Shown: piece after piece, positions 2,892 to 19,927 of the stretch | How the letters are laid out: each line of letters begins with the position of its first letter | Position numbering within the stretch: position 1 is the first letter of the stretch | Assembly (NCBI GenBank): GCA_038061835.1 | Contig: JBBTYJ010000017.1 | Coordinates: 12,442-47,846 of the forward strand | Direction of reading: 5' to 3' | Length of the DNA stretch: 35,405 nucleotides | DNA from: Patescibacteria group bacterium | Lineage (GTDB): Bacteria; Patescibacteriota; Minisyncoccia; Phycocordibacterales; Zambryskibacteraceae | Translations under genes and position numbers: made by a program | Notes under the pieces: model-generated | Seen by the model: the letters and a program-made list of their open reading frames with translations, nothing else | Told to the model about the DNA's origin: nothing | Database searches by the model: none

Positions 2892-4103
2892 ATGGCTCTC
2901 TATAAATACAAAGCCAAAAATAAGGAAGGCAAAATATACGAACGCACCATTGAGCTAAAGGATCGTTTGGATATCTACCGCGTTATTCGGGAGGAAGGGG
3001 GTAGTGTAATTTCTATCCAGGAAGCCGGAGGATATTCCGTGTTGACTTTGCTCGATCATATTTTGGGTAGTATCAATATGCATCAAAAAATCATCTTTGC
3101 CAAAAATCTTGGTTTGATGATGAAGGCCGGTCTGCCGGTTACTCGCGCACTTTCCGTAATGGAAAAACAGTCCAAAAGCAAACCGTTTAAAAAGTTACTC
3201 TCTGAACTTGAAGCGGACGTTAGTCACGGTAAAACTCTCTCCGAATCTTTGAAAAGATGGCCTAAAATCTTTTCTCCTCTATTTGTATCCATGATCAAGG
3301 CGGGAGAAGAATCCGGCAATGTTTCAGGTTCGCTCAATATCGTTTCTAATCAAATGGAGAAAACGTATTTATTGACCAAGAAAGTGCGTGGTGCGCTTAT
3401 ATATCCGGCAGTAATTATCTCGGTTATGATTATTATCACGATTTTGCTTCTGATTTTCATGGTACCAACTTTGACCGCAACGTTCGAGGGTCTCGGTGTC
3501 GAATTGCCTTTGTCGACTCGAGTGCTTATTTATCTAAGTAATTTTTTGGTCGAGAATACTCTGGCGGTTTTGACCAGTGTTTTACTGCTCGCGATATTTT
3601 CGGTGATTTTCTTACGGACGAGAATAGGACGCAGTCTTTCTGATGTTGTTTTCATGCATCTTCCCGTTATTGGAGAAATGATCAAGGAGTTTGAATCTGC
3701 TCGAACTACCCGCACTCTCTCTTCGCTACTTTCCAGCGGGGTGGAAATTGTGGTGGCGCTTGATGTTACTATCGATGTTTTACAAAATCATCTGTATAAA
3801 AATGCCTTAACGCGCGCGCGCGTCGCTATCGAGAAGGGAGAACCGATGTCGGCTGTGTTTATCGGACACGATAAACTTTACCCTCTCTTTGTCGGAGAAA
3901 TGGTTGCTGTCGGGGAAGAAACCGGCAAAATTTCGGAGATGCTCATGGGAGTAGCAGATTATTACGAAGAAGAGGTGGATCAAAAAACCAAAGATCTTTC
4001 AACCATTATTGAGCCGATATTAATGGTTATTATTGGTATCGGAGTTGGTATCTTTGCCATCTCAATGCTTGCTCCCACTTATTCTCTGGTGGACTATATA
4101 TGA
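2892..4103 (+). CDS. pilC: Type IV pilus inner-membrane platform protein, PilC/GspF family
   Basis: Two T2SSF-like repeats (MIKAGEESG, MVAVGEETG), ALIYP and IIEP motifs, TM segments; follows pilB. Confidence 0.92.
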   Translation: MALYKYKAKNKEGKIYERTIELKDRLDIYRVIREEGGSVISIQEAGGYSVLTLLDHILGSINMHQKIIFAKNLGLMMKAGLPVTRALSVMEKQSKSKPFKKLLSELEADVSHGKTLSESLKRWPKIFSPLFVSMIKAGEESGNVSGSLNIVSNQMEKTYLLTKKVRGALIYPAVIISVMIIITILLLIFMVPTLTATFEGLGVELPLSTRVLIYLSNFLVENTLAVLTSVLLLAIFSVIFLRTRIGRSLSDVVFMHLPVIGEMIKEFESARTTRTLSSLLSSGVEIVVALDVTIDVLQNHLYKNALTRARVAIEKGEPMSAVFIGHDKLYPLFVGEMVAVGEETGKISEMLMGVADYYEEEVDQKTKDLSTIIEPILMVIIGIGVGIFAISMLAPTYSLVDYI

Positions 4104-7657: not shown

Positions 7658-8679
7658 AATCGATTCTTGAGGCGGGTAATTTGGGTGGCAAGAAAGTATT
7701 GGTACGAGTGGACTGGAGCGTACCCACTGACAGCGGCAAGGTGATAAATGATTACCAAATAAGAAAATCGCTTCCAACTATAGAGTATTTACAAAAAGCC
7801 GGAGCTCGAATCACTCTTTTGAGTCATGCAGAGAAAAATGAAGACTCCCTATTATCCATATATAAACACGCAAAAGAGTTTCTTCCGCGGCTTACATTTG
7901 TTGAGCCCAGTGATCTGACGCTTCTTGAAAATCTTCGTCAGAATGCAGGTGAAAGAGAAAACTCTACAAAGTTTGCCAAGGAACTTGCCGAGTTGGGAGA
8001 CATTTTTGTCAATGAAGCTTTCCCCGTTTCTCATCGAGAACATGCTTCTATAGTAGGGTTACCTCGGCTTCTGCCGAGTTTTTTCGGTTTGCAGTTTGCT
8101 GACGAAATCAAGGAGTTGTCTCGCGCCTTTTATCCCAAGAGACCCTTTCTTTTTATCTTAGGTGGGGCAAAATTTGATACTAAACTACCACTTTTGGGAA
8201 AGTTCATAAATATTGCCGACGAAATCTTTGTGGGTGGCGCCTTGGCCAACAACTTTCTTAAATTTCAAGGTATGGATGTCGGCAATTCTCTGGTGGATGA
8301 TAGAGACTTCGGATTATCTAAATTGTTGGAAACAAAAAAGATTATTCTACCCGAAGACACCATTGTGGTCGATCGCAAAATTATGGATGCAGGGCCCATT
8401 ACGATGGAACATTTAAAATCAAAAATTGAGGCCGCAAAATTGATCTTATGGAACGGGCCTCTAGGTTTTTATGAGCTTGGTTATAAAACGGCGACTCTGC
8501 AATTGGCGAAGATGATTGTCGAACTCGGGCGCGACTCTATTGTTGGTGGCGGAGACACTTTGGCTGCCATACGGGAATTGGATGTTTGGGACAAGTTTTC
8601 TTTTGTTTCAACGGGCGGAGGAGCAATGCTTGATTTTCTAGCCACGGGCACGCTACCGGGCATCGAAGCTTTAAAATAA
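7654..8679 (+). CDS. pgk: Phosphoglycerate kinase (compact)
   Basis: KKVLVRVD, LLENLR, LGGAK, WNGPLG, GGGDT, STGGGA motifs. Confidence 0.95.
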   Translation: MKSILEAGNLGGKKVLVRVDWSVPTDSGKVINDYQIRKSLPTIEYLQKAGARITLLSHAEKNEDSLLSIYKHAKEFLPRLTFVEPSDLTLLENLRQNAGERENSTKFAKELAELGDIFVNEAFPVSHREHASIVGLPRLLPSFFGLQFADEIKELSRAFYPKRPFLFILGGAKFDTKLPLLGKFINIADEIFVGGALANNFLKFQGMDVGNSLVDDRDFGLSKLLETKKIILPEDTIVVDRKIMDAGPITMEHLKSKIEAAKLILWNGPLGFYELGYKTATLQLAKMIVELGRDSIVGGGDTLAAIRELDVWDKFSFVSTGGGAMLDFLATGTLPGIEALK

Positions 8680-8715
8680 CAGTATAAATGATGTTAGTAT
8701 CAATAAATATACTTG

Positions 8716-8751
8716 TACGTTATAATTATGCTATAGCATTAAAGTAACGTA
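8716..8751. promoter_or_regulatory. 36-bp palindromic site A1 (operator- or recombination-site-like); contains TATAAT and ends on the A of the ATG
   Basis: TACGTTA-TAATT-ATGCTATAGCAT-TAAAG-TAACGTA. Confidence 0.75.
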
Positions 8752-9317
8752 TGGGAAAACTTGAAGAAAAGGGCGGAAAAAGATCGAGACGTAAACATTT
8801 GCAATACGCAATCCTTCAAACAGTCGCTGCTGTGGGAGTATTGAGTATTGGTCTCGTAGCTCCTAATGTATTAGGGGCTCTTATCAAATTAGGTATCATT
8901 CCAAATAAAAGACAAAAGGAATATATAAGTTCTTCCGCAAGCAAATTAACCAAGCGAGGACTGCTCTCTTATGATGGTAGGCAGTACTGTCTGACTCCAG
9001 ACGGAGAGAAGATTTTACGCCGTTGGCAATTTGCTGACTTTAGATTGCAGAAACCGAAGAAGTGGGACAAGAAATGGAGAGTGATCATCTTCGATATTCC
9101 AGAGAAAAAGAAACATATTCGAAATCAAATCACGATGTTCTTTCGACAAGCCGAGTTTCTACGTCTTCAAGATAGTGTTTGGATTTATCCTTATGATTGT
9201 GAAGACATTGTAACATTACTGAAGATTGATTTCAGAATTGGTAAATATCTACTGTATTTAATTGTGGATGAGTTGGAAAATGATAAACATTTACGTGAAG
9301 ATTTCGGCCTGATCTAA
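8751..9317 (+). CDS. wHTH + PaaX/Cas2-like domain protein (paralogue A)
   Basis: wHTH-like SSSASKLTKRGLL...YCLTPDG, then KWDKKWRVIIFDIPE...LQDSVW, typical of the PaaX central/Cas2-like ferredoxin fold. Confidence 0.8.
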   Translation: MGKLEEKGGKRSRRKHLQYAILQTVAAVGVLSIGLVAPNVLGALIKLGIIPNKRQKEYISSSASKLTKRGLLSYDGRQYCLTPDGEKILRRWQFADFRLQKPKKWDKKWRVIIFDIPEKKKHIRNQITMFFRQAEFLRLQDSVWIYPYDCEDIVTLLKIDFRIGKYLLYLIVDELENDKHLREDFGLI

Positions 9318-9343
9318 TCTAATTTTATCTATAATTTATTCGA

Positions 9344-9379
9344 TACGTTAATAAAATGCTATAGCATTAAAGTAACGTA
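9344..9379. repeat. 36-bp palindromic site A2, direct repeat of A1 (32/36)
   Basis: TACGTTA-ATAAA-ATGCTATAGCAT-TAAAG-TAACGTA, 26 nt after the stop. Confidence 0.85.
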
Positions 9380-9428
9380 TACATATAGCAACATTGGCAA
9401 AGACATTGTTCTTGAATTTTTGAAAAAA

Positions 9429-9455
9429 GAAAGGGCCGAGATTGCTCGCCCTTTC
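9429..9455 (-). terminator. Intrinsic terminator for the minus-strand small ORF
   Basis: GAAAGGGC...GCCCTTTC stem; the A-run on its left reads as a U-tract on the minus strand. Confidence 0.6.
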
Positions 9456-9476
9456 AAGTTCGTGGTAGTGTCACAG

Positions 9477-9614
9477 CTAGGTAGTCTTTTTGGTTAGTAC
9501 TATTGCTATTACAGCCGTCAACGCGTAGGAAGACAAGTGTAGGTTAGTATAGTAATCCAAAAGGAGTCCCGCAAAGATACTAATGCTCAACACTCCAAGA
9601 TGTACAGATGGCAT
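9477..9614 (-). CDS. Small hydrophobic protein, 45 aa (not in ORF track)
   Basis: MPSVHLGVLSISIFAGLLLDYYTNLHLSSYALTAVIAIVLTKKTT; SD GGAGG 8 nt upstream of the ATG; downstream terminator. Confidence 0.6.
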   Translation of the reverse strand: MPSVHLGVLSISIFAGLLLDYYTNLHLSSYALTAVIAIVLTKKTT

Positions 9615-9683
9615 ATTTTAGTCCTCCCCCTGATTTCCAACTGCAACATAGCATATCTAATTTAATCTGTCTAGGGGTAGATT

Positions 9684-10058
9684 CTAATTTAATGTAATAG
9701 CCTCTCTGATTTTTTGGGCGTTGTTTTCGAAGTCAGTTTTATTGTCGATTACTTTTGAATTCGGAAATACCCAAATATGCGCGTGTTCCACCTCATCGCC
9801 TATTATTCTTGAAAGTATGAAGTCTGTTCCAAATGCTTTTTGTTGAGCTTTGGCAATTTTTTGAACTACTTCAAAATATTTTCCGGCGTTGGGAGTATCC
9901 CAAACCCATCTGTAGTGTTTTTTTGTAATAATCTGAGTATGCCCCGGAGATTGTGGGTTGATATCCAGAAACGCTAAAAAATTTTCATCCTCGTACACTT
10001 TGTATGATGGAATTTCTCCCTTAACGATTTTACAAAAGATACAGTGAGAATCTTTCAT
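9684..10058 (-). CDS. HIT family nucleotide hydrolase
   Basis: CIFCKIVKGEIP, FLDINP..PGHT, HAHIW (variant histidine triad). Confidence 0.9.
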   Translation of the reverse strand: MKDSHCIFCKIVKGEIPSYKVYEDENFLAFLDINPQSPGHTQIITKKHYRWVWDTPNAGKYFEVVQKIAKAQQKAFGTDFILSRIIGDEVEHAHIWVFPNSKVIDNKTDFENNAQKIREAITLN

Positions 10059-10060
10059 TT

Positions 10061-10999
10061 TTAATAGGTCTTTTCTACCACAAGTCGACCAAATTGATCT
10101 AATAGAGAGACAGTCTCATATTTGTTTGCCCACATTTCCCAACCTTTGCCGAGAAAGATTCGCCATGTGCGATCGGCAAAATCTTTGTCACCAACATGAT
10201 AGGCAATGCAGGAGCCGTAATTAAAACGATTCTTTATAAAGGCGACGCAGGAACTCGAGAGCGGTTTGTCGTCGACACAATTGGAGCAAATACCCCCATC
10301 CTTATCTAAGGTATTAAACTTTGGCGTGTAACAGGACGCCAAACGTTCAATAAATTTTCGACATTCTGTGTCGAGATTGTTTACCCCCGATTCATTTGCC
10401 GGTCTGGGACAGTTGCGCGTAAGCGACGGAGTGAAAGTATATTCGGGTAGATCTTCCAAATAGCCGGAACAAATATTTTCTTTGAAACTCACAATCTTGT
10501 ATGGTGACTGTGAGCCGACCGAACCGGTCGTGATAACGGCGGTTTCGCCAGGCTTGAGCACTATATTTTGTAGTGTGTTGAGACTGTTAGGAGAGATAAA
10601 GAGCGCTGCCTGTCCGATAATTGCAATATCTGAAGGGAAATATCGCAGAGTTCCGCCAAAATCGTATGCGCGCTTACTTTTACTATTTTTTAGTTGCCAG
10701 TTGGTAATACTAATGGGTTCTCTACTTTTATTATATATAGAAATGTATTCCTCGTATGGTTGATAGGCAGATCTCGCATTGCCTGTATTCAGAGAGATAG
10801 ATTTTGCGTAGGATGAGTTGTTTACGGCAAGATTTTCTGTTTTGGAACTTGTGTTTCCAGTAGCGGAATCAGATGTATTGGACGGTTTGGCTGTTGAGTT
10901 AGGAGTTCCTTTAAACGTAGCCAACATAATAACAGCAATAATAGCTAGAATCGCGATACCTTCGGCAGTGCTATTGCCCGCTTTGAGCGATTTATTCAT
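10061..10999 (-). CDS. Membrane-anchored extracellular protein, lamin-tail-domain-like, Cys-rich
   Basis: N-terminal TM; EEYISIYN...ISITNWQL and a C-terminal W...ETVSLLDQFG pattern. Confidence 0.6.
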   Translation of the reverse strand: MNKSLKAGNSTAEGIAILAIIAVIMLATFKGTPNSTAKPSNTSDSATGNTSSKTENLAVNNSSYAKSISLNTGNARSAYQPYEEYISIYNKSREPISITNWQLKNSKSKRAYDFGGTLRYFPSDIAIIGQAALFISPNSLNTLQNIVLKPGETAVITTGSVGSQSPYKIVSFKENICSGYLEDLPEYTFTPSLTRNCPRPANESGVNNLDTECRKFIERLASCYTPKFNTLDKDGGICSNCVDDKPLSSSCVAFIKNRFNYGSCIAYHVGDKDFADRTWRIFLGKGWEMWANKYETVSLLDQFGRLVVEKTY

Positions 11000-11065
11000 A
11001 AGTTCATCTTAATACGTCTGCTCTTCAACGCCAAGCATGACAGGCAGGCGTGTTAGAATAGCCCC

Positions 11066-12718
11066 ATGCAACATTTCCCAGAACTATTTGAAGCCATGCT
11101 TAGGGAACGTGGCATCACTCCTGAAGAACAAGAGGGTTTTCTAAATCCCGATTATGAGAAACTTCATAATCCGCTCGCATTACCCGATATGGAGAAGGCT
11201 CGCGACAGAGTAATTAAGGCGGTAAAAGACAATGAACATGTTGTTGTCTTTTCCGATTATGACTGCGATGGTTTACCGGGAGCAGTAGTACTTTCTGATT
11301 TTTTTGCCCGGATAGGGTACAACAATATTTCCTTCTATGTTCCGCATAGGCATGATGAAGGTTTTGGTCTCAATCAAGATGCTATAAAAGAAATTATCAC
11401 ACGCGGCACAAAACTCCTTATCACAATTGACTGTGGTATTGCAGATGCGAAAGAAGTAGCGCTTGCCAATGAAAATGGTGTCGATGTCATTGTCACCGAT
11501 CATCACAAACCCAATCCTCTGTCAGCGGGCGGACTGCCGAATGCTTACGCTATTGTTAATCAAAACAGAGATGACTCGGATTACCCGTTCAAAGGACTCT
11601 GCGGGGCGGCATTAGCATTCAAATTGGTACAGGCCGTTGTTTTACAAGAGACATTCGGCGTTAAGCCCGGTATGGAGAAATGGTCTCTGGATATGGTAGC
11701 CATTGCTACCCTGTCGGATATGGTGCCTCTTCTTGATGAGAATAGAATTTTTGCGCGCTTCGGACTCTCGGTATTGCGCAAGTCTCCCAGACCGGGACTT
11801 GCCGCACTTTTCAAAAAAATGAATCTTGATCAAAGTACCGTCTCAGAAGACGATGTTACTTTTATGATTACTCCGCGTATTAACGCCGCTTCACGCATGG
11901 GCGTGCCGAAGGATGCCTTCCAACTTTTAAGTACAAAAGATTACAGTGAAGCCGAAAGGCTCGCTCTCTACTTGGAACAAATAAACAATGAGAGAAAGGG
12001 CGTGGTGGCAAGTATTGTGAAGGAAGCAAAATTTCGGCTCGCAGGTCGAGAAGATTTGCCCGATGTTATTGTTATTGGCAATCCAGAGTGGCGCCCGGCT
12101 CTTCTTGGCCTGGTCGCCAATTCACTTGTTGAAGAATACGAAAGACCGGTTTTTATTTGGGGTAGAAGCGGAGATGGAACGCTTAAGGGATCTTGTCGTT
12201 CGTACAATGGTTATGATCTTTTTGCTTTGATGAATATTGCGAGTGGCGCGTTTATAGAATTCGGTGGACACACTGGGGCTGGCGGATTTTCCGTTACTCT
12301 CGAAAGTCTCACTACTCTCGAAGAGAAATTATCTCAGGCCTTATCGAACCTGGAGGCGGGGTCTTCAAGTGGCGATCTCTCTTTATTTGACATAAACTTG
12401 GATGATATTGGGGAAAATCTCTGGAATTTGGTCTCAAGTTTTGCGCCATTCGGTATGGGGAACAAGAAGCCGATTTTTAAAATTCCCAAAGCAGAAATAA
12501 AGTCAGTCAGAAAATTTGGTAAAGAAAGCAATCATCTCGAAGTTACATTTAACAGTGGAAAGAATGAAATCAAGGCCATTTCTTTTTTCTCGAGCCCGGA
12601 TTCTTATCCTACCCCTCTTACTCCCGGTACACGTGTCTCTCTACTTGCTAATCTCGAAAAATCATATTTCAGAAATTATCCAGAGTTACGCTTAAGGATT
12701 GTTGATATAGAACCATAA
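11066..12718 (+). CDS. recJ: ssDNA-specific exonuclease RecJ
   Basis: DYDCDG, TIDCG, TDHH, PRINAASR, GGH, APFGMGN motifs. Confidence 0.96.
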   Translation: MQHFPELFEAMLRERGITPEEQEGFLNPDYEKLHNPLALPDMEKARDRVIKAVKDNEHVVVFSDYDCDGLPGAVVLSDFFARIGYNNISFYVPHRHDEGFGLNQDAIKEIITRGTKLLITIDCGIADAKEVALANENGVDVIVTDHHKPNPLSAGGLPNAYAIVNQNRDDSDYPFKGLCGAALAFKLVQAVVLQETFGVKPGMEKWSLDMVAIATLSDMVPLLDENRIFARFGLSVLRKSPRPGLAALFKKMNLDQSTVSEDDVTFMITPRINAASRMGVPKDAFQLLSTKDYSEAERLALYLEQINNERKGVVASIVKEAKFRLAGREDLPDVIVIGNPEWRPALLGLVANSLVEEYERPVFIWGRSGDGTLKGSCRSYNGYDLFALMNIASGAFIEFGGHTGAGGFSVTLESLTTLEEKLSQALSNLEAGSSSGDLSLFDINLDDIGENLWNLVSSFAPFGMGNKKPIFKIPKAEIKSVRKFGKESNHLEVTFNSGKNEIKAISFFSSPDSYPTPLTPGTRVSLLANLEKSYFRNYPELRLRIVDIEP

Positions 12719-12831
12719 ATCAGGATAAAGTCATCCATACTGCATGTGGATATCATTAAAAATACCAGAAATGAATTATGTTAGAATAAGGGGGAGGATT
12801 TTTTAATTTATATAAACTTAAAAGTATTATT

Positions 12832-13191
12832 ATGAATTTGCCACTTTGGTACAAAATTGTCTCTATAATTTTCTTGATCTTGCTTTTACCCTCTCTTTTA
12901 TTAATGGCCATGACCATAACAGGTTTTGTTGAGGGAGATAGCACAATTTTTACCATAGGAATACTGCCTTCATTTGTGGGCATTCTTTACGAAATAATGA
13001 TTATCCTAACTGCACTTTTCAAAAAATCGTGGAAATTCTTTTTGTTGACCCAAAGTGTGTTTTTGATTGCATGGCTATTTCTTTGGTTACTTTTGGATGG
13101 TAGAAATAAACTTATGGGTGTTGGTTTGGTAGTCATCCTGTCTTTGATAACCATTGTATTTAATAAAAAATTACTTGGAAGCAATTCGTAA
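12832..13191 (+). CDS. Four-TM membrane protein (cargo between recJ 3'-end duplicates)
   Basis: 119 aa, very hydrophobic, AT-rich. Confidence 0.7.
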   Translation: MNLPLWYKIVSIIFLILLLPSLLLMAMTITGFVEGDSTIFTIGILPSFVGILYEIMIILTALFKKSWKFFLLTQSVFLIAWLFLWLLLDGRNKLMGVGLVVILSLITIVFNKKLLGSNS

Positions 13192-13210
13192 TAAAAGATT
13201 AAGAGGAATG

Positions 13211-13280
13211 TAATCTAGAAAAATTCTATTTCAGAAATTATCCAGAGTTACGCTTAAGAATTGTTGGCATAGAGCCTTAG
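13211..13280 (+). repeat. Orphan duplicate of the recJ 3' end (copy of 12649-12718)
   Basis: 61/70 identical with a 32-bp exact core; encodes NLEKFYFRNYPELRLRIVGIEP*. Confidence 0.92.
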
Positions 13281-13407
13281 ATGTCAGACACTATTTATGA
13301 GGTAGACAACAACAAATACTGTGTGTTGGCTATGTTTTTGAAAAAGTGTATAGTGGGGCAAGATTGCTCAAATTGTTCAGCCTATGCTTAATTAGGAGGA
13401 TCGAAAT

Positions 13408-13608
13408 ATGTTAGGTTTATTCATTCTTATCGGTAGATTGCTCGTTGGTCAGACGATAGAGGTGAAAATCACAATCGATAAAAGTCCAGATTTATCAAAC
13501 AAAACATGGAGGTGGTCTCAGCTTAATGGTTTCGGTACGGAAGAGCATTTCGAGGGTAAGGGAACCAGCCCGTACCACAAGTTTCTTGGATACTGGCGCC
13601 ATCGTTAG
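13408..13608 (+). CDS. Small hypothetical protein, 66 aa
   Basis: AGGAGG SD 8 nt upstream, hydrophobic N-terminus, followed by a terminator hairpin. Confidence 0.5.
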   Translation: MLGLFILIGRLLVGQTIEVKITIDKSPDLSNKTWRWSQLNGFGTEEHFEGKGTSPYHKFLGYWRHR

Positions 13609-13638
13609 AATTGGGAGGTGTGCGAATGAAAGGTCAGC

Positions 13639-13668
13639 AAACCCCATCTACAAAATAGATGGGGTTTT
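13639..13668 (+). terminator. Intrinsic terminator
   Basis: AAACCCCATCTA-caaaa-TAGATGGGGTTTT. Confidence 0.7.
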
Positions 13669-13737
13669 ACAAAAATATATAAGAATAATTCTCGAAGATA
13701 GTAAACTGTGGAAAATTATAAATGATATAATTCCAAA

Positions 13738-14232
13738 ATGATTACGATCTATACAGACGGAGCGTCGCGAGGGAATCCGGGACCGGGAGGGTGGGGCGCA
13801 ATCATTTTAAATGACGATAGGGTCGTAGAAATTGGAGGACGAGAAAACCACACGACAAACAATAGAATGGAACTGACGGGAGCTATCAAAGCCTTGGAGT
13901 TTGTCCCGGTATCATTTGCCGATGATTGTGTGCTTTTTACTGATTCTGAATATGTGATGAAGGGTATAACGGCATGGATACACCGGTGGCAGAAGAAAGG
14001 TTGGAAGACCGCGAATAAAAAACCGGTCTTAAACCAGGATTTGTGGCAAGAACTTCTGAATGTGACCAAAAATGTGGAAAAACACCTGCCTGCCGGTAGG
14101 CAGGTTGAATGGAAATATGTGGCTGGACATTCCGGTAATCGTTTGAATGACAGATGTGATGAAATCGCCACCAATTTTGCGGATAATATTCCACTCGTTC
14201 TCTATAATGGATCAAAAGACAAATACAAATAG
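13738..14232 (+). CDS. rnhA: Ribonuclease HI
   Basis: IYTDGASRGNPGPGGWG, TTNNRMEL, TDSEYV, GHSG..NDRCD. Confidence 0.96.
   Translation: MITIYTDGASRGNPGPGGWGAIILNDDRVVEIGGRENHTTNNRMELTGAIKALEFVPVSFADDCVLFTDSEYVMKGITAWIHRWQKKGWKTANKKPVLNQDLWQELLNVTKNVEKHLPAGRQVEWKYVAGHSGNRLNDRCDEIATNFADNIPLVLYNGSKDKYK
14084..14105. repeat. Small palindromic element inside rnhA (encodes LPAGRQ)
   Basis: ACCTGCCT-GCCGGT-AGGCAGGT. Confidence 0.7.
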
Positions 14233-15637
14233 CATATTCATTTTTATTTTCGGTTTTATTCTGGGCATTTTGTTTTCTTCTTTTGTTTTTATTGCACCAT
14301 TGGTGAGTGTTTTGGTAGTCGTTATTAGCATGGCTCTATTCATTGTAGAGAAAATTTGGAGTAAAGAAATAAACAAGGAAGTTTTGTTTCTTGCTCTTGC
14401 GCTCTTGTCATTTGGTTTAGGCGCTCTACGTTATTCTGTGAAAGATTTTCATGAGGCATCCATCCCATTGTCGATCGGTGTTGTAATCAGTGAACCGGAA
14501 CAGAAAGAAAGCGTCACTCGCTTTGTTTTTCAAGCAAATAATGGAGAAAAAGTTTTGGTAAGCACTGATTTGTATAATCCTGTTCAATATGGAGATAAGG
14601 TTGAAATTAAGGGGAAACTTCAAAAGCCGGGTGTTATAGATGACGGCGCGAGCCGACCGTTTGATTATGGCAAATATCTTTCCAAGGATAATATTTATTT
14701 CACTATGAGTTTCGCCAAAGTTGAAATACTTTCGCATGGTCATGGCAATTTTCTCAAACAAGCGCTTTTTAAAATAAAAGGGAATTTTATCGGGAAAACC
14801 AAAGAAATCTTGGCAGAACCGTATGCCGGTCTTCTCTCCGGACTCATTATTGCCGGTAAGGAAGCAATGCCGAAAGATATTCTTGAGGAATTCAAACGCG
14901 CCGGAGTGATACATATCGTAGTGCTTTCTGGTTACAATATTACAATCATTGCCGAGTTTATGAAAACGATATTTAGAAGCATAAAGTTTTCCGTTGTCGG
15001 TATTATCTTGTTTGTCATCATGACAGGGGGCGAGGCCACGGTGGTTCGCGCGGCGCTTATGGTTCTGACTGTCATTCTAGCGAAAGGGTTAGGAAGAAAT
15101 TTCTCGGCGCCACGGGCGCTGCTTGTCGTCGCTTTCCTGATGCTTCTTCATAATCCTAAAATTTTGGTATTCGATCCATCCTTTCAGCTTTCTTTTCTTG
15201 CCACTTGCGGACTTATATTTGTCACTCCGATAGTTGAAAGGTATTTGACTCGAGTACCGGATAAGTGGGGATTGCGCGCCATAATTTCTGTTACCCTCGC
15301 GACTCAAATTACGGTCCTACCCTTTCTTATTTATTCCACTGGTAATATCTCTCTAGTTTCTCTCCCGGCCAATATTCTTATTCTGCTTTTTATCCCCTAT
15401 ACGATGCTTATAGGTTTTATCGCTGTTCTAGTCGCCCATCTTTCGTTAGTCATTGCTCTGCCATTCTCGTATATAGCTCATATTCTTCTCGCTTGGATTC
15501 TCGGCGTTTCGCACTCTTTAGGGAATCTTTCTTTTGCATCTATCGCTGTTTCATCCCCCTCACCCTTATTGGTTGTGATAATTTATCTCGTCATTATTAC
15601 TTTTGTATGGCGTTCGCAACCCCGAAGGACAGCATAG
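14207..15637 (+). CDS. comEC: ComEC competence channel, N-terminal part (DUF4131/OB + competence domain)
   Basis: FDYGKYL, GVIHIVVLSGYNI, VVRAALM, DPSFQLSFLAT; many TMs; start placed at ATG 14207. Confidence 0.9.
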   Translation: MDQKTNTNSIFIFIFGFILGILFSSFVFIAPLVSVLVVVISMALFIVEKIWSKEINKEVLFLALALLSFGLGALRYSVKDFHEASIPLSIGVVISEPEQKESVTRFVFQANNGEKVLVSTDLYNPVQYGDKVEIKGKLQKPGVIDDGASRPFDYGKYLSKDNIYFTMSFAKVEILSHGHGNFLKQALFKIKGNFIGKTKEILAEPYAGLLSGLIIAGKEAMPKDILEEFKRAGVIHIVVLSGYNITIIAEFMKTIFRSIKFSVVGIILFVIMTGGEATVVRAALMVLTVILAKGLGRNFSAPRALLVVAFLMLLHNPKILVFDPSFQLSFLATCGLIFVTPIVERYLTRVPDKWGLRAIISVTLATQITVLPFLIYSTGNISLVSLPANILILLFIPYTMLIGFIAVLVAHLSLVIALPFSYIAHILLAWILGVSHSLGNLSFASIAVSSPSPLLVVIIYLVIITFVWRSQPRRTA

Positions 15638-15662
15638 CTGTCTACGGGGCAAGAATTCTTTT

Positions 15663-16193
15663 TTACTGTTGTGCTTTTGTAAAATTTTGTTCGACGTTGC
15701 TCCAATTTAAGTTTTCGAAAAAAGCTTCAATATAATTCTTTTTTTCTGCTGGCGTGTAGTCAATAAAATATGCATGTTCCCACATATCGAGCGCTAGAAT
15801 TGGGGAAAGACCAACAAGCTGTCCGAGATGGTGCTCGTCAACCCAACTATGTAGAAGCTGTTTGGAAATCGGGTCGTAATACACAATCGCCCAGCCTACT
15901 CCGCGTGTTAGGGCCAATACTTTAAATTTTTCTAAGTCAAATCCAGATTTGGTAAATCCGCTATCGTTTGAGAGTGGTTGTGGACCACCTTCGAAATGTG
16001 AGAAATAGTATTCATGGTTTCTCATACCATTGAACTCGAATGGGAATCGGCGATTATAATCTTTCTCAGCCAATAAATCGTTCGTATTTTTGACATAACC
16101 TGCATAAAGTTTGAGGTGTTCTGAAATGGCTTTTTCCGAGATACCTTTGAGTTTCGGAATATTAAATTTTTTCTCTTCGAAATTTTTTATCAT
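15663..16193 (-). CDS. Fe/Mn superoxide dismutase family protein (short)
   Basis: EHLKLYAGYV, NHEYYF, DMWEHAYFIDY motifs. Confidence 0.88.
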   Translation of the reverse strand: MIKNFEEKKFNIPKLKGISEKAISEHLKLYAGYVKNTNDLLAEKDYNRRFPFEFNGMRNHEYYFSHFEGGPQPLSNDSGFTKSGFDLEKFKVLALTRGVGWAIVYYDPISKQLLHSWVDEHHLGQLVGLSPILALDMWEHAYFIDYTPAEKKNYIEAFFENLNWSNVEQNFTKAQQ

Positions 16194-16221
16194 AATAACA
16201 TTATACTATAGTTATACACCG

Positions 16222-17079
16222 ATGAGTTTTATAATAAAATATCCTAGAGCAGTGGTGGTTGGCGTTCTTATTCTTTTTAATCTTCTTGTTTGGGCGGCAA
16301 TTTATCAGAGACAACCAAGTGATATTTTGACTGTTTATTTTCTTGATATAGGCCAGGGCGATGCTATTTTTATAGATTCTCCCGGGCATGGTAGAGCTCT
16401 TATTGATGGCGGAGCTAATAGAAAGATTTTGAGTGAACTTGGGAAGATTTTACCATTTGCCGATAAACGTATAGATGTAATGATAGAAACTCATCCCGAC
16501 AAGGATCATATTGGCGGATTACCGGAAGTGGCAAGTCGTTATGAAATCGGAATGTTTCTCGAACCAGGAGTAGAATCAGACAACAACATTGATGATGAAT
16601 TAAAAAAAAGAATAGTAGAGACTAATGTTCCAAGTTTATTGGCAAGAAGAGGAATGGTCATTAATTTTGGCGATGGGGTGAAATTTCAAATACTTTTTCC
16701 AAACCAAGATGTTTCAAGATGGGAAACAAACGATGCTTCTATTGTGGCGAGATTGGTTTATGGAAACAAATCCTTACTTTTGACCGGTGATTCTCCTATT
16801 AAGACGGAAAATATTTTACTAAAACTTGATTCTATCAGTTTGGATTCCGATGTGCTTAAGGCCGGACACCATGGTTCGCGCACTTCCACTTCTCTCGCAT
16901 ACGCGCAGACGGTTTCTCCGGAATATGCTGTAATCTCTGCTGGTAAAAATAATTCCTACGGTCATCCGCACCAGGAAGTGCTCAACATTTTGGCAAGTGT
17001 TGGTGCTAAGATTGTTAGCACCGTCGAATTGGGGACTATCAAATTTGAAACAGATGGTAAAACTCTAGAACTTAAATAA
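16222..17079 (+). CDS. ComEC/Rec2-type metallo-beta-lactamase-fold protein (stand-alone)
   Basis: FLDIGQGDA, THPDKDHIGG, LTGD, GHHGS, NSYGHPH; N-terminal TM; start ATG 16222. Confidence 0.88.
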   Translation: MSFIIKYPRAVVVGVLILFNLLVWAAIYQRQPSDILTVYFLDIGQGDAIFIDSPGHGRALIDGGANRKILSELGKILPFADKRIDVMIETHPDKDHIGGLPEVASRYEIGMFLEPGVESDNNIDDELKKRIVETNVPSLLARRGMVINFGDGVKFQILFPNQDVSRWETNDASIVARLVYGNKSLLLTGDSPIKTENILLKLDSISLDSDVLKAGHHGSRTSTSLAYAQTVSPEYAVISAGKNNSYGHPHQEVLNILASVGAKIVSTVELGTIKFETDGKTLELK

Positions 17080-17084
17080 TTGTC

Positions 17085-17981
17085 ATGCTAAATCTCAAAA
17101 ATCTACAAAAAAATATTGTACTCGCGCCTTATACTACCTATAAAATAGGCGGAAAGGCAGATTACTTTTTCACGGCTAATAATAAGAGTGATTTGGTCGA
17201 AGCGCTTTCATGTGTCAAGACAGAAAACATACCCTTTTTTGTATTAGGGGGCGGATCAAATATTCTCGTGGGAGATAAAGGATTCAGAGGATTAGTAATA
17301 CACAATCAAGCCCAAAATTTTAAATTTGAAGATAATTTACTGATATCCGAAAGTGGTGCCATCATTTCTGATCTCATTGATATCTCTTTGAAACATTGTC
17401 TTTCTGGTTTAGAACGTTTTGCCGGAATACCCGGCACTGTTGGCGGAGCTATTTATCAAAATATACATTTTTTATCGCCCGATAGGACAAGTACTTTTTA
17501 TATAGAATCAATCGTCAAGAGCGGTTTGGTTTTAGAGGATGGAATAGAAAGGGAAGTGGATAAAAATTATTTCGCATTCGGATACGACGACAGTATTTTA
17601 CACCACAACAAAAACATTTTTGTGTTAGAAATCACTTTCACATTGAAAAATGGAGACCCCGATCTTATTCAATCCTGGATTACCAATAATCTGGAATGGA
17701 GAAAACAAAAACAGGAGAGATTGGAAAAATTTCCCTCCTGCGGTTCAGTGTTTAAGAAAATAAAAGGAATCGGTGCCGGACGTTTGATAGAACAATGTGG
17801 TCTGAAGGGAAAACGAATTGGCGGAGCGCTCATTTCTGAAAAGCATGCAAATTATATTGTGAACACAGGGAATGCAACGGCAAGAGATGTCCGCGAAATG
17901 ATAGCGTTCATTCAAGAAGAAGTTTTCAAAAAGACAGGATATAAACTCGAATCTGAAGTGGGGTTTATTGGGGAATTTTAA
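17085..17981 (+). CDS. murB: UDP-N-acetylenolpyruvoylglucosamine reductase
   Basis: TTYKIGG, LGGGSNIL, GIPGTVGGA, SCGSVFK, SEKHANYIVN, LESEV. Confidence 0.95.
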   Translation: MLNLKNLQKNIVLAPYTTYKIGGKADYFFTANNKSDLVEALSCVKTENIPFFVLGGGSNILVGDKGFRGLVIHNQAQNFKFEDNLLISESGAIISDLIDISLKHCLSGLERFAGIPGTVGGAIYQNIHFLSPDRTSTFYIESIVKSGLVLEDGIEREVDKNYFAFGYDDSILHHNKNIFVLEITFTLKNGDPDLIQSWITNNLEWRKQKQERLEKFPSCGSVFKKIKGIGAGRLIEQCGLKGKRIGGALISEKHANYIVNTGNATARDVREMIAFIQEEVFKKTGYKLESEVGFIGEF

Positions 17982-18011
17982 ATCACTCCGGCTTTTTTGA
18001 GAGTACTGTGG
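17978..18011 (-). repeat. Orphan duplicate of the rpmB 3' end (copy of 19035-19068)
   Basis: 30/34 identical; reads HSTLKKAGVI* versus HSVLKKAGVI*; its stop overlaps the murB stop (TTAA). Confidence 0.88.
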
Positions 18012-18028
18012 ACAATCAAATTTTCTTA

Positions 18029-18064
18029 TACGTTATAATATCACTACCGTGAATGACTAACGTA
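18029..18064. promoter_or_regulatory. 36-bp palindromic site B1; contains TATAAT and ends on the A of the ATG
   Basis: TACGTTA-TAATA-TCACTACCGTGA-ATGAC-TAACGTA. Confidence 0.75.
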
Positions 18065-18630
18065 TGGGCAAGATTGAAGAAAAAAGTCAAAAGAAAGGTA
18101 ATAGAGAACATTTACAGAAACTGATTCTTCAGACAGTAGCAGATGTCGGCATGTTAAGTATTGCACTAGTGGCGCCCAATGTGTCCAGGGCTATGTATAA
18201 ACTTGGGTTAGTTCCCAAATGGAGACAAAATGAATACGTCAATTCTTCTGCTAGCAAGCTAGTTAAACGAGGGCTACTCTTTTATGACGGTAAGAAATAT
18301 TGCATGACTTCTAAGGGGGAAGACCTTCTTTGTCAGTGGCAATTTGCTGATTTTAAACTGGAAAGACCCAAGAAATGGGACAGAAAATGGAGAGTAATTA
18401 TTTTTGATATCCCGGAGAAGAAAAGAAAGATACGGGATCAGGTTAGAACTCTATTTAAATCAGCTGGCTTCTATCTTTTGCAAGACAGTGTCTGGGTTTA
18501 TCCGTATGATTGTGAAGATCTTCTAACTCTTCTTAAGTCTAATCTTGGGGTAGGTAAGAATGTTTTATATCTCATCGTTGATGAAATTGAAAATGATAAA
18601 CATCTCCGCGAATCTTTCAATTTGATCTAA
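18064..18630 (+). CDS. wHTH + PaaX/Cas2-like domain protein (paralogue B)
   Basis: Same 188-aa length and colinear with 8751..9317 (about 125/188 identical by manual count). Confidence 0.8.
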   Translation: MGKIEEKSQKKGNREHLQKLILQTVADVGMLSIALVAPNVSRAMYKLGLVPKWRQNEYVNSSASKLVKRGLLFYDGKKYCMTSKGEDLLCQWQFADFKLERPKKWDRKWRVIIFDIPEKKRKIRDQVRTLFKSAGFYLLQDSVWVYPYDCEDLLTLLKSNLGVGKNVLYLIVDEIENDKHLRESFNLI

Positions 18631-18665
18631 TTGCGCATTCTGTTTAAATTGTATTAATTCTACTC

Positions 18666-18701
18666 TACGTTAATAACTCACGGTCGTGAATTAATAACGT
18701 A
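18666..18701. repeat. 36-bp palindromic site B2
   Basis: TACGTTA-ATAAC-TCACGGTCGTGA-ATTAA-TAACGTA, 35 nt after the stop. Confidence 0.85.
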
Positions 18702-18776
18702 AGTTGGATTTTAAAGAAAATGAAAGCCGCCACACCGAGAGTATCCAGTGTGGCGAACTCTCTTGCACGGCGGCCA

Positions 18777-18944
18777 TCAGTCTTCCGAAGGCTCTTCGAT
18801 GAGTAGTCCGGTAGTCTTATCGACGATGAGAAATCTCCCTTCGTCGTCCACGATACTGTATACTCGTATCTTCGGTAACGGGGACGCAAATGAACCATCA
18901 TCTTCCAGTTCGGGTGGTCTTTGGCCGATCTCATAACTTTCCAT
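18777..18944 (-). CDS. Small acidic protein, 55 aa (not in ORF track)
   Basis: MESYEIGQRPPELEDDGSFASPLPKIRVYSIVDDEGRFLIVDKTTGLLIEEPSED; TAAGGAGGT 7 nt upstream; hairpin 18728-18755 downstream. Confidence 0.65.
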   Translation of the reverse strand: MESYEIGQRPPELEDDGSFASPLPKIRVYSIVDDEGRFLIVDKTTGLLIEEPSED

Positions 18945-19034
18945 TACTTGTACCTCCTTAACCTACCAAAACGTTACTTCCTCTTATCATATTACTATAT
19001 GGACTGACAATTATCCAGCGTTATTGATACAGTA

Positions 19035-19277
19035 TTAAATCACCCCGGCTTTTTTGAGGACACTGTGGGCGCCATGTCTGTTTATGGTCTTGATAGCGCG
19101 CGTAGAGATAGTGAGAGTAATTGTCTTTTTGAGTTCGGGCACGTAAATGCGTTTTTTCTGAAGATTGGGATACTTGCGAACCATTCCCGTGGGGTTAAAT
19201 TGAGTCGCGCGAGTTCTGTTGGAGTATCCTCCGCCCTTTTTTGAACCCTTTTTACTTATGGGACAAATTCTTGCCAT
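19035..19277 (-). CDS. rpmB: 50S ribosomal protein L28
   Basis: MARICPISKK...RKYPNLQKKR...ISTRAIKTI. Confidence 0.9.
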   Translation of the reverse strand: MARICPISKKGSKKGGGYSNRTRATQFNPTGMVRKYPNLQKKRIYVPELKKTITLTISTRAIKTINRHGAHSVLKKAGVI

Positions 19278-19309
19278 GTGAGAGATAACTTACATGATAT
19301 AATCGATAA

Positions 19310-19927
19310 ATGCAAATAGATCTCGTATTTCAAATCGCGATTTTAATCATGTCCGTGGTCATTCACGAAGTGTCGCATGGTTACGCGGCAAGTTTCTTAG
19401 GCGATCAAACGGCAAGATATCAGGGTCGTCTGACGCTTAATCCTCTCAAGCATCTCGATTTTGTCGGTTCATTTTTGGTGCCAATTCTTCTTTATGTATC
19501 CAAAGTCGGCATAATTTTCGGCTGGGCGAAGCCGGTACCTTACAATCCTTACAATCTCAAATCCGGAAGATGGTCCGAAGTGATTGTGGCTTTCGCCGGA
19601 CCGGCTGCCAATCTTTCTCTTGCGATTTTGTTTGGTCTATTTTTGCGTATTGGCTCTGCAAACTTGGCTAGTCCCGCTTTTATTGAAATTGTATCTCTTA
19701 TAGTTTTTATCAATATTCTTCTGGCCGTTTTCAATCTTGTGCCCATACCTCCTCTTGATGGCTCTAAGTTGATCTTTGCCTTTTTTCCAGACAAATCCTA
19801 CCAAATAAGAGGATTTTTTGAGAGCTACGGTTTGATACTTGGTCTCTTTTTTATTTTCTTTCTATGGCAGTTTATCTTCCCGGTTATCACCTGGCTTTTT
19901 AGTCTGATTACCGGCATTGCATTTTAG
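19310..19927 (+). CDS. Site-2 protease, M50 family
   Basis: HEVSH, GRLTLNPL, AGPAAN, FNLVPIPPLDG. Confidence 0.92.
   Translation: MQIDLVFQIAILIMSVVIHEVSHGYAASFLGDQTARYQGRLTLNPLKHLDFVGSFLVPILLYVSKVGIIFGWAKPVPYNPYNLKSGRWSEVIVAFAGPAANLSLAILFGLFLRIGSANLASPAFIEIVSLIVFINILLAVFNLVPIPPLDGSKLIFAFFPDKSYQIRGFFESYGLILGLFFIFFLWQFIFPVITWLFSLITGIAF

Follow-up and report, generated by a model that had tools for sequence, protein, structure and literature searches.

In a 35,405-nt stretch of a Patescibacteria genome (Zambryskibacteraceae; contig JBBTYJ010000017.1, positions 12,442–47,846; hereafter the window), two paralogous genes for 188-residue proteins, genes A and B, each lie between two copies of a 36-bp composite palindrome, one ending on the start codon and the other lying just past the stop. 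The same layout of a gene between its own sites recurs in relatives throughout the class, and we take it as the sign of a large family of cassette-like repressors that regulate themselves. Very little is known of how gene expression is controlled in Patescibacteria. The reading that we favour, and to which we give about an even chance, is that each gene encodes a miniature PaaX-like autorepressor with a private duplex operator upstream and an auxiliary operator downstream.

Gene A (8751..9317, plus strand) is preceded by site A1 (8716..8751), which has outer arms TACGTTA/TAACGTA and the core ATGCTATAGCAT, and is followed, 26 nt after its stop codon, by site A2 (9344..9379), which has the same core and is identical to A1 at 32 of 36 positions in direct orientation. 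Gene B (18064..18630, plus strand) stands between site B1 (18029..18064, core TCACTACCGTGA) and site B2 (18666..18701, core TCACGGTCGTGA), the latter 35 nt after the stop. When read as its reverse complement, the B2 core matches the B1 core at 11 of 12 positions. Both upstream sites end on the A of the start ATG and contain TATAAT at site positions 6–11, inside the left arm (8721..8726 in A1 and 18034..18039 in B1, both on the plus strand), where it would serve as a −10 element. The two open reading frames (ORFs) are identical at 125 of 188 residues (66%). A previous sequence-only reading of the window had described the four sites, the two flanked paralogues and their approximate identity, the hexamers, the overlap with the start codon and the relation between the B cores, and all of these, down to coordinates and letters, were recovered as it gave them. 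A search of the window for TACGTTA-N22-TAACGTA with up to two mismatches returned exactly these four sites, each an exact match; shuffled windows held 0.13 sites on average, and none of 100 reached four.

The source genome (G000; 457 kb in 24 contigs, 96.8% complete) belongs to a tiny groundwater bacterium. It contains one more exact match to TACGTTA-N22-TAACGTA, with an A-type core and no family gene adjacent (C23:916-951), so that the motif is not common in the genome away from these genes. Two further paralogues with about 60% identity were found by tblastn (C24:10103-10669 and C22:472-1038), and each has a palindrome that ends on the A of its ATG and a second palindrome shortly past its stop. 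Their arms follow the pattern TACAYNNAT...ATAGATGTA, unlike those of A and B. One of them has the core AACTATAGTT on both sides; the other has CGCTATAGCG upstream and ACGATCGT downstream.

To see how far the layout extends, we used relatives from species-representative genomes, where scanning found 532; the best 80 loci were kept, mostly from Zambryskibacteria and other Parcubacteria metagenome-assembled genomes. A locus was counted as paired when its upstream and downstream 36-mers were each palindromic at 11 or more of 18 positions and agreed with each other at 24 or more of 36. Among 81 assessable loci (relatives' loci from other genomes plus the four copies of the source genome) 65 carried such a matching pair; homologues thus generally do have flanking sites. 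The cognate downstream region was the best or tied-best match to its own upstream region in 44 of 82 loci, a figure whose non-cognate background is inflated by orthologues. In a distant test genome from another family of the same class (G048; complete, a single contig of 651,549 bp), all ten family genes have site-like palindromes on both sides, with arms that share nothing with TACGTTA, and for nine of the ten modules the cognate downstream site is the best match. The proposal that gene and cognate sites form a self-contained module is strongly supported by these counts. At a threshold of E 1e-10 or better, 68 of the 121 genomes sampled from the class contained the family, at 1–13 copies in genomes of 0.5–1 Mb.

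The two sites of a pair differ in position and in content. In 45 loci, from close relatives, the upstream site abuts the ATG, while in 20 loci from more distant ones it lies 3–40 nt further upstream; in 11 of these 20 a −10-like hexamer ends 5–10 nt before the ATG, which suggests a leaderless mRNA. Downstream sites start 0–50 nt past the stop. A perfect TATAAT at site positions 6–11 is present in 25 of 45 upstream sites versus 7 of 45 downstream sites (30 versus 17 if near-perfect hexamers are counted). This enrichment argues that the upstream site doubles as a promoter and that the downstream site mostly does not. Pairs are in direct orientation in 49 loci and inverted in 12, with four ties, and the centre of the core shows no consistent asymmetry. 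The distance from upstream to downstream site has a median of 628 bp (range 602–732). Since the downstream site is both conserved and cognate, we conclude that it is under selection.

The symmetry of the palindromes has the character expected of duplex DNA. It is high at the outer positions 1–8 and in the central four pairs and low in the spacer. Where the two halves mismatch, G:T combinations are about as frequent as A:C (58 versus 48 in upstream sites, 55 versus 46 in downstream sites), with no strand bias; selection for a hairpin in plus-strand RNA would favour G:U, and the balance therefore argues for recognition of symmetric double-stranded DNA.

The encoded proteins resemble a truncated PaaX. 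Pfam assigns residues 103–176 to the Cas2-like PaaX_M domain (PF20803) in both A (E 6e-18, 65.1 bits) and B (E 3e-21, 75.8 bits; cut-off 24), and gives weak winged-helix matches (HTH_45). CRISPR_Cas2 of Pfam stays below its cut-off of 23.8 bits (15.2 and 18.5 bits), the NCBIfam Cas2 model TIGR01573 matches B at 27.9 bits, above the cut-off of 24.5, and A at 16.9, below it, and the PaaX equivalog TIGR02277 reaches 23.2 and 28.1 bits, far under its cut-off of 264.55. No Pfam match to PaaX_C was found; the proteins end about 12 residues past the PaaX_M match. In an AlphaFold model built from the 80-sequence alignment (pLDDT 78.6; a four-sequence alignment reached only 47), a long basic helix at the N-terminus is followed by a winged helix and by a domain of beta-alpha-beta-beta-alpha-beta topology. 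In a Foldseek search with this model E. coli PaaX (8a39) was the sole match below E 0.001 (E 3e-5), with winged-helix domains, Rv0674 and Cas2 chains at lower ranks; a sequence search of the PDB returned only Rv0674 (3kfw, E 0.022). Homodimer prediction scored 0.18 against a mark of 0.42, which speaks neither for nor against binding. Among more than 1,800 sequence clusters of the family, public labels are mostly hypothetical, or variously PaaX or Cas2. PADLOC gave weak Cas2 and winged-helix matches and no defence or toxin-antitoxin profile, and PHROGs gave nothing below E 0.09.

PaaX, known from E. coli and Pseudomonas, is a repressor that responds to phenylacetyl-CoA. A review (PMC9493321) gives TGATTC-N27-GAATCA as the sequence bound by the E. 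coli protein, states that PaaX represses the promoter of its own gene, and describes its middle domain as a dimerisation motif. The family shares with PaaX the order of an N-terminal winged helix and a Cas2-like middle domain (PF20803; Foldseek match to 8a39) and resembles it in the wide palindromic architecture of the putative operator, with 7-bp arms set 22 bp apart here and an N27 spacing in PaaX. It differs in that the proteins lack the C-terminal effector (phenylacetyl-CoA-binding) domain and have 188 residues as opposed to 305 in the 8a39 chain, in that paa genes are not nearby and up to 13 copies occur per genome, and in that a second cognate site lies past the stop and an additional palindrome occupies the centre of each site.

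Protein and site vary together. The strongest association links residue 58, with which the predicted recognition helix begins, to base 4 of the arm: Y or F at residue 58 goes with G at base 4 in all four half-sites (28 loci), and I, S, V or T goes with A (31 loci), leaving four exceptions among 63 loci. Relatedness inflates associations of this kind, and we take this one as supportive of binding of the site DNA by the protein rather than as proof. All four paralogues of the source genome have the same SSASKL helix, but residue 58, where this helix begins, changes together with the arm. The suggestion of the sequence-only reading that the recognition helix and the outer arms are nearly invariant thus holds for A and B and not for the family.

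Under the autorepressor reading, each gene would produce a minimal PaaX-type DNA-binding protein, with an N-terminal winged helix and a Cas2-like dimerisation module and without a C-terminal effector domain. The dimer would bind duplex DNA at a private 34–36-bp composite palindrome, in which asymmetric spacers of about 6 bp separate the 7–8-bp outer arms from a palindromic centre of about 8 bp. Occupation of the upstream site, which holds the gene's own −10 element and abuts the start codon, would shut off transcription of the gene, a case of negative autoregulation. The downstream site, 0–50 nt after the stop and in direct orientation, would act as an auxiliary operator that loops to the upstream site about 630 bp away and so raises local occupancy, and/or blocks RNA polymerase arriving from a convergent neighbour; expression would then be independent of the location of the cassette. 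Gene and both sites would form a cassette of about 0.75 kb inserted at gene tails, with paralogues diverged into protein/site pairs that do not cross-react and some of them equipped with a few extra solo operators, that is, small regulons. The data show the sites with their conservation, the co-variation of protein and site, the DNA-like symmetry and the polymorphism of the insertions; binding, repression and, for the downstream site, an auxiliary operator working by looping or as a roadblock are what we infer. LacI, DeoR and GalR have auxiliary operators that cooperate by looping; we know of no tetramerisation domain in the family proteins. Among the functions offered by the sequence-only reading, operators for autoregulation or looping fit best, given the −10 within the site, the DNA-like symmetry and the likeness to PaaX operators; an RNA-hairpin role is disfavoured by the mismatch symmetry, and recombination ends gain some support from target duplications and from slots that are filled in some genomes and empty in others.

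Several observations weigh against the autorepressor reading. An ordinary autorepressor has no need of a downstream site. A clear pair was not seen in 16 of the 81 loci, and the downstream core differs from the upstream core in paralogue C of the source genome and in one relative (L023). A sigma-70 scan called no full promoter at A1 or B1, where a −35 match is absent. Helical phasing of the spacing between sites was not seen (Rayleigh p at least 0.17 for periods of 9–12.5 bp), so that looping has no positive support. An Asp of Cas2 type (D115) and an acidic cluster are invariant in the 80-sequence alignment and could indicate catalysis instead of mere dimerisation. Finally, the target duplications and the slot polymorphism described below would fit a mobile element equally well.

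The units of one gene and two sites are discrete insertions at gene tails. A-type genes lie between pgk and a convergent HIT gene and B-type genes between MBL/murB and a convergent rpmB; the slot of the third paralogue (C) precedes a convergent cca gene, and that of the fourth (D) lies between rplE and rpsN. The B insert (18002..19034), at the tail-to-tail junction of murB and rpmB, comprises B1, gene B and B2, followed by 333 nt more. It is bounded by a 24-bp direct repeat whose left copy (17978..18001, plus strand) supplies the murB stop codon and duplicates the rpmB 3′-end, and whose right copy (19035..19058, plus strand) represents the genuine last seven codons and the stop of rpmB, itself on the minus strand. 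The copies agree at 23 of 24 positions, with a score of 21.5 that corresponds to the 99.9th percentile of non-cognate flank pairs. In one relative (L011) murB and rpmB abut and the insert is absent. On either side of paralogue D stands the same 18-bp piece of the rplE end, without a mismatch; for module A the flank duplication is not significant (score 8). Overall, direct repeats outside the sites exceeded the 99th percentile of non-cognate pairs in 11 of 80 loci. These repeats, whose lengths vary between 14 and about 35 bp, lie about 730–780 bp apart and represent a second copy of the 3′-end of the target gene.

Occupancy of the slots varies between relatives. At 18 pgk|HIT loci, 16 of them in the genus, the slot is filled in four, the genes abut in seven and gaps of 88–224 nt remain in three; one genome of another family has a 52-nt gap, and three loci are not assessable. 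Among the gapped slots, one holds a solo site (L147) and another a duplicated pgk end (L150). In most cases the slot follows the lineage, a sign of long vertical residence, with exceptions such as L025, which occupies the pgk|HIT slot while its four nearest relatives occupy the MBL|rpmB slot (the family tree was built by FastTree and carries no support values; nearest-neighbour identities supplemented it). Inserts at the rplE|rpsN junction, compared across 30 relatives (L084-L113), vary from genome to genome and mark it as a hot spot: four genomes have none there (24–27 nt), two have a small membrane ORF, and G003 and G015 have an unknown 142-aa gene that lies behind a solo site of the family type. 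In another genome (G011) a HigB-like toxin-antitoxin pair fills this slot, and the rplE end is duplicated there in the same way, so that such a duplication is no peculiarity of the family module.

Such footprints raise the alternative that the palindromes are the ends of a small mobile or excisable cassette, whose protein would bind both ends and either cut and join the DNA itself or direct these reactions, possibly by means of a host recombinase or of its own Cas2-like domain. A solo site would then be what excision leaves behind, gene tails would be the places of integration, and the use of the left end for autoregulation would be secondary. We consider this unlikely, though it is the strongest competitor. 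It draws on the prevalence of direct orientation, on the repeats that flank the D and B inserts and other loci, on the filled, empty and gapped pgk|HIT slots together with the displaced L025, and on the invariant D115 and acidic cluster. On the other hand, the family protein shows neither the fold nor a motif of a recombinase or transposase, and no His that could belong to an HUH motif is found among the invariant and near-invariant columns of the 80-sequence consensus. Cas1 (PF01867) is not matched anywhere in the source genome, extending to all of its 96.8% complete sequence the absence that had been noted for the window (the positive control matched 7 of 14 control genomes), and a single tyrosine recombinase is encoded (C24:2108-2587). 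The duplicated rplE end around the HigB-like pair, the 333 nt carried past B2, repeat lengths unlike those left by a fixed staggered cut, the agreement of slot with lineage and the core without consistent asymmetry all count against mobility as well. A search for sequencing runs gave eight entries from two studies, all of them DNA contigs and none RNA. Contigs from four runs (at most two samples of one study, possibly the source of the assembly) showed, over window positions 8000–19500, no junction indicating loss or circularisation of either module, although contigs cannot show rare forms; additional contig depth at 9152–9535 and 18368–18751 stems from the conserved part of many family genes.

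A bolder version of this idea, which we regard as quite improbable, would see in the module a minimal gene cassette of a new type, selfish or mobile, belonging to ultra-small bacteria of the candidate phyla radiation. Its winged-helix/Cas2-like product would recognise the bracketing direct-repeat palindromes, and the Cas2-type acidic site or a recruited host enzyme would excise the cassette and re-insert it at gene tails with a long target duplication, the private specificities acting like incompatibility or immunity groups. If true, this would give a Cas2-fold protein a role in DNA mobility that is independent of Cas1.

Bound sites might instead serve mainly as roadblocks or insulators against transcription that runs on from the operon upstream or arrives from the convergent gene downstream, the module being a self-limiting operon boundary. 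Modules do lie where operons end (pgk|HIT, murB|rpmB, x|cca and rplE|rpsN), downstream sites lie close behind the stop and most are not promoters, and Rho (TIGR00767) was not found in the 96.8% complete source genome, which makes a roadblock role conceivable. Yet in many relatives the genes abut at the same junctions, so that a boundary element is not needed there; neighbours occur in all four combinations of orientation across loci, by a crude ORF-based count; and terminator-like hairpins adjoin B2, one of them directly beyond it (18727..18756, minus strand). As the main function, we hold this very doubtful. That the palindromes are RNA hairpins at transcript ends, which the Cas2-like domain would recognise or cut so as to govern processing, stability or translation, is highly improbable despite the Cas2 profile matches and folding energies of −8.4 to −10.8 kcal/mol (z-scores −2.7 to −3.4) for A1, A2, B1 and B2, because any palindrome folds well and such energies do not discriminate, the mismatches bear no sign of selection on plus-strand RNA, a conserved −10 inside the left arm would leave only half of the upstream hairpin in the gene's own mRNA, and a scan of the window gave no Rfam match.

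Returning to the autorepressor reading, we looked at sites that stand apart from family genes. The source genome has three solo family-type sites, all intergenic: the A-type site at C23:916 and two of C type (C7:37323 and C15:12819). Those on C7 and C23 lie directly past gene 3′-ends. In 647 kb of locus sequence, 96 strong sites stand beside family genes and four are solo, one of these followed by a decayed gene start. G048 contains about 16 extra places that match the site of some module; at about 315–323 kb and about 415.1 kb, single intergenic regions contain two or three neighbouring sites that differ in specificity; one such cluster precedes a DUF5680 gene beside a TraG/VirD4-like gene, and another lies upstream of greA. 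In two relatives (L091 and L092) a solo site abuts the TTGACA-N17-TATAAT promoter of an unrelated gene. The solo sites of these genomes and loci make it probable that family proteins control small regulons; some of them may be scars instead.

Three loci of relatives depart from the simple layout. An upstream-type site at L039:148-183 has behind it the decayed start of a family gene, about 1.5 kb upstream of an intact module; this looks like a degraded second copy. L041 contains a direct repeat of at least 117 bp (2795-2932 and 3602-3739) that includes a full downstream-type site, so that three sites surround one gene. In L050 the same family-gene match occurs on both strands, with a long perfect palindrome after the gene; this is probably an artefact of assembly by inverted duplication.

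The arrangement recalls several known systems. In the immunity region of lambdoid phages the repressor gene is bracketed by OL and OR, operators that each govern a promoter pointing outward. The family modules likewise bracket a putative repressor gene with operators of its own specificity, and specificities differ between modules as between heteroimmune phages; here, however, the downstream site is mostly not a promoter, and no phage match or phage context was found. A REPtron is a RAYT gene flanked by cognate REP palindromes, with solo copies in hundreds. REPtrons, IS200/IS605 elements and pdif/Xer modules resemble the family in having a single small gene, paralogue-specific flanking cognate palindromes and solo copies elsewhere. 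An HUH or Tyr motif is absent from the 80-sequence consensus, in contrast to REPtrons and IS200/IS605, and the source genome holds three solo copies rather than hundreds; unlike pdif sites, which depend on one host recombinase, the sites here co-vary with the encoded protein. Cas2 and VapD share the ferredoxin-like fold and a YDI-type beta-1 motif with a conserved Asp, with profile matches that are weak to borderline. As distinct from Cas2, the domain is fused to a winged helix, Pfam favours PaaX_M far more strongly, Cas1 was not found, and no CRISPR array was seen in the window by the sequence-only reading.

The domain family and PaaX-type operators are already known. A literature search conducted mostly without subscription journals found nothing published on the effector-less form, on its expansion in Patescibacteria or on bracketing by two copies of the own site, nor on rapid co-diversification of protein and site or on insertion footprints. 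As each family gene has its likely binding site written twice alongside it, the family provides a ready table of protein/operator pairs, which could be used to derive a recognition code (residue 58 versus arm base 4), to predict small regulons in uncultured organisms and to obtain repressor/operator pairs that are orthogonal and of use in engineering. The conservation of the downstream site and the footprints of insertion also pose the question of whether the modules serve regulation alone or represent a new minimal mobile cassette built on a Cas2-fold protein.

Some further features of the window and the genome were recorded. A scan of the window found no tRNA. Beyond B2, the B insert contains an 89-aa ORF without a Pfam match (18665-18934 of the window, minus strand), which has a counterpart with 58% identity in L009. 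A second, unrelated palindrome family (...ACATACGATATATCGTATGT...) occurs in the source genome at C4:5011-5044, C7:40709-40742, C14:3370-3403 and C16:23213-23246 and may be the operator of another regulator. Palindromes of the form GGTCAGACCTT...AAGGTCTGACC recur at C3:5908, C4:14, C19:11215, C21:10047 and C7:36710; two of them lie at contig ends, and these palindromes may cause assembly breaks.

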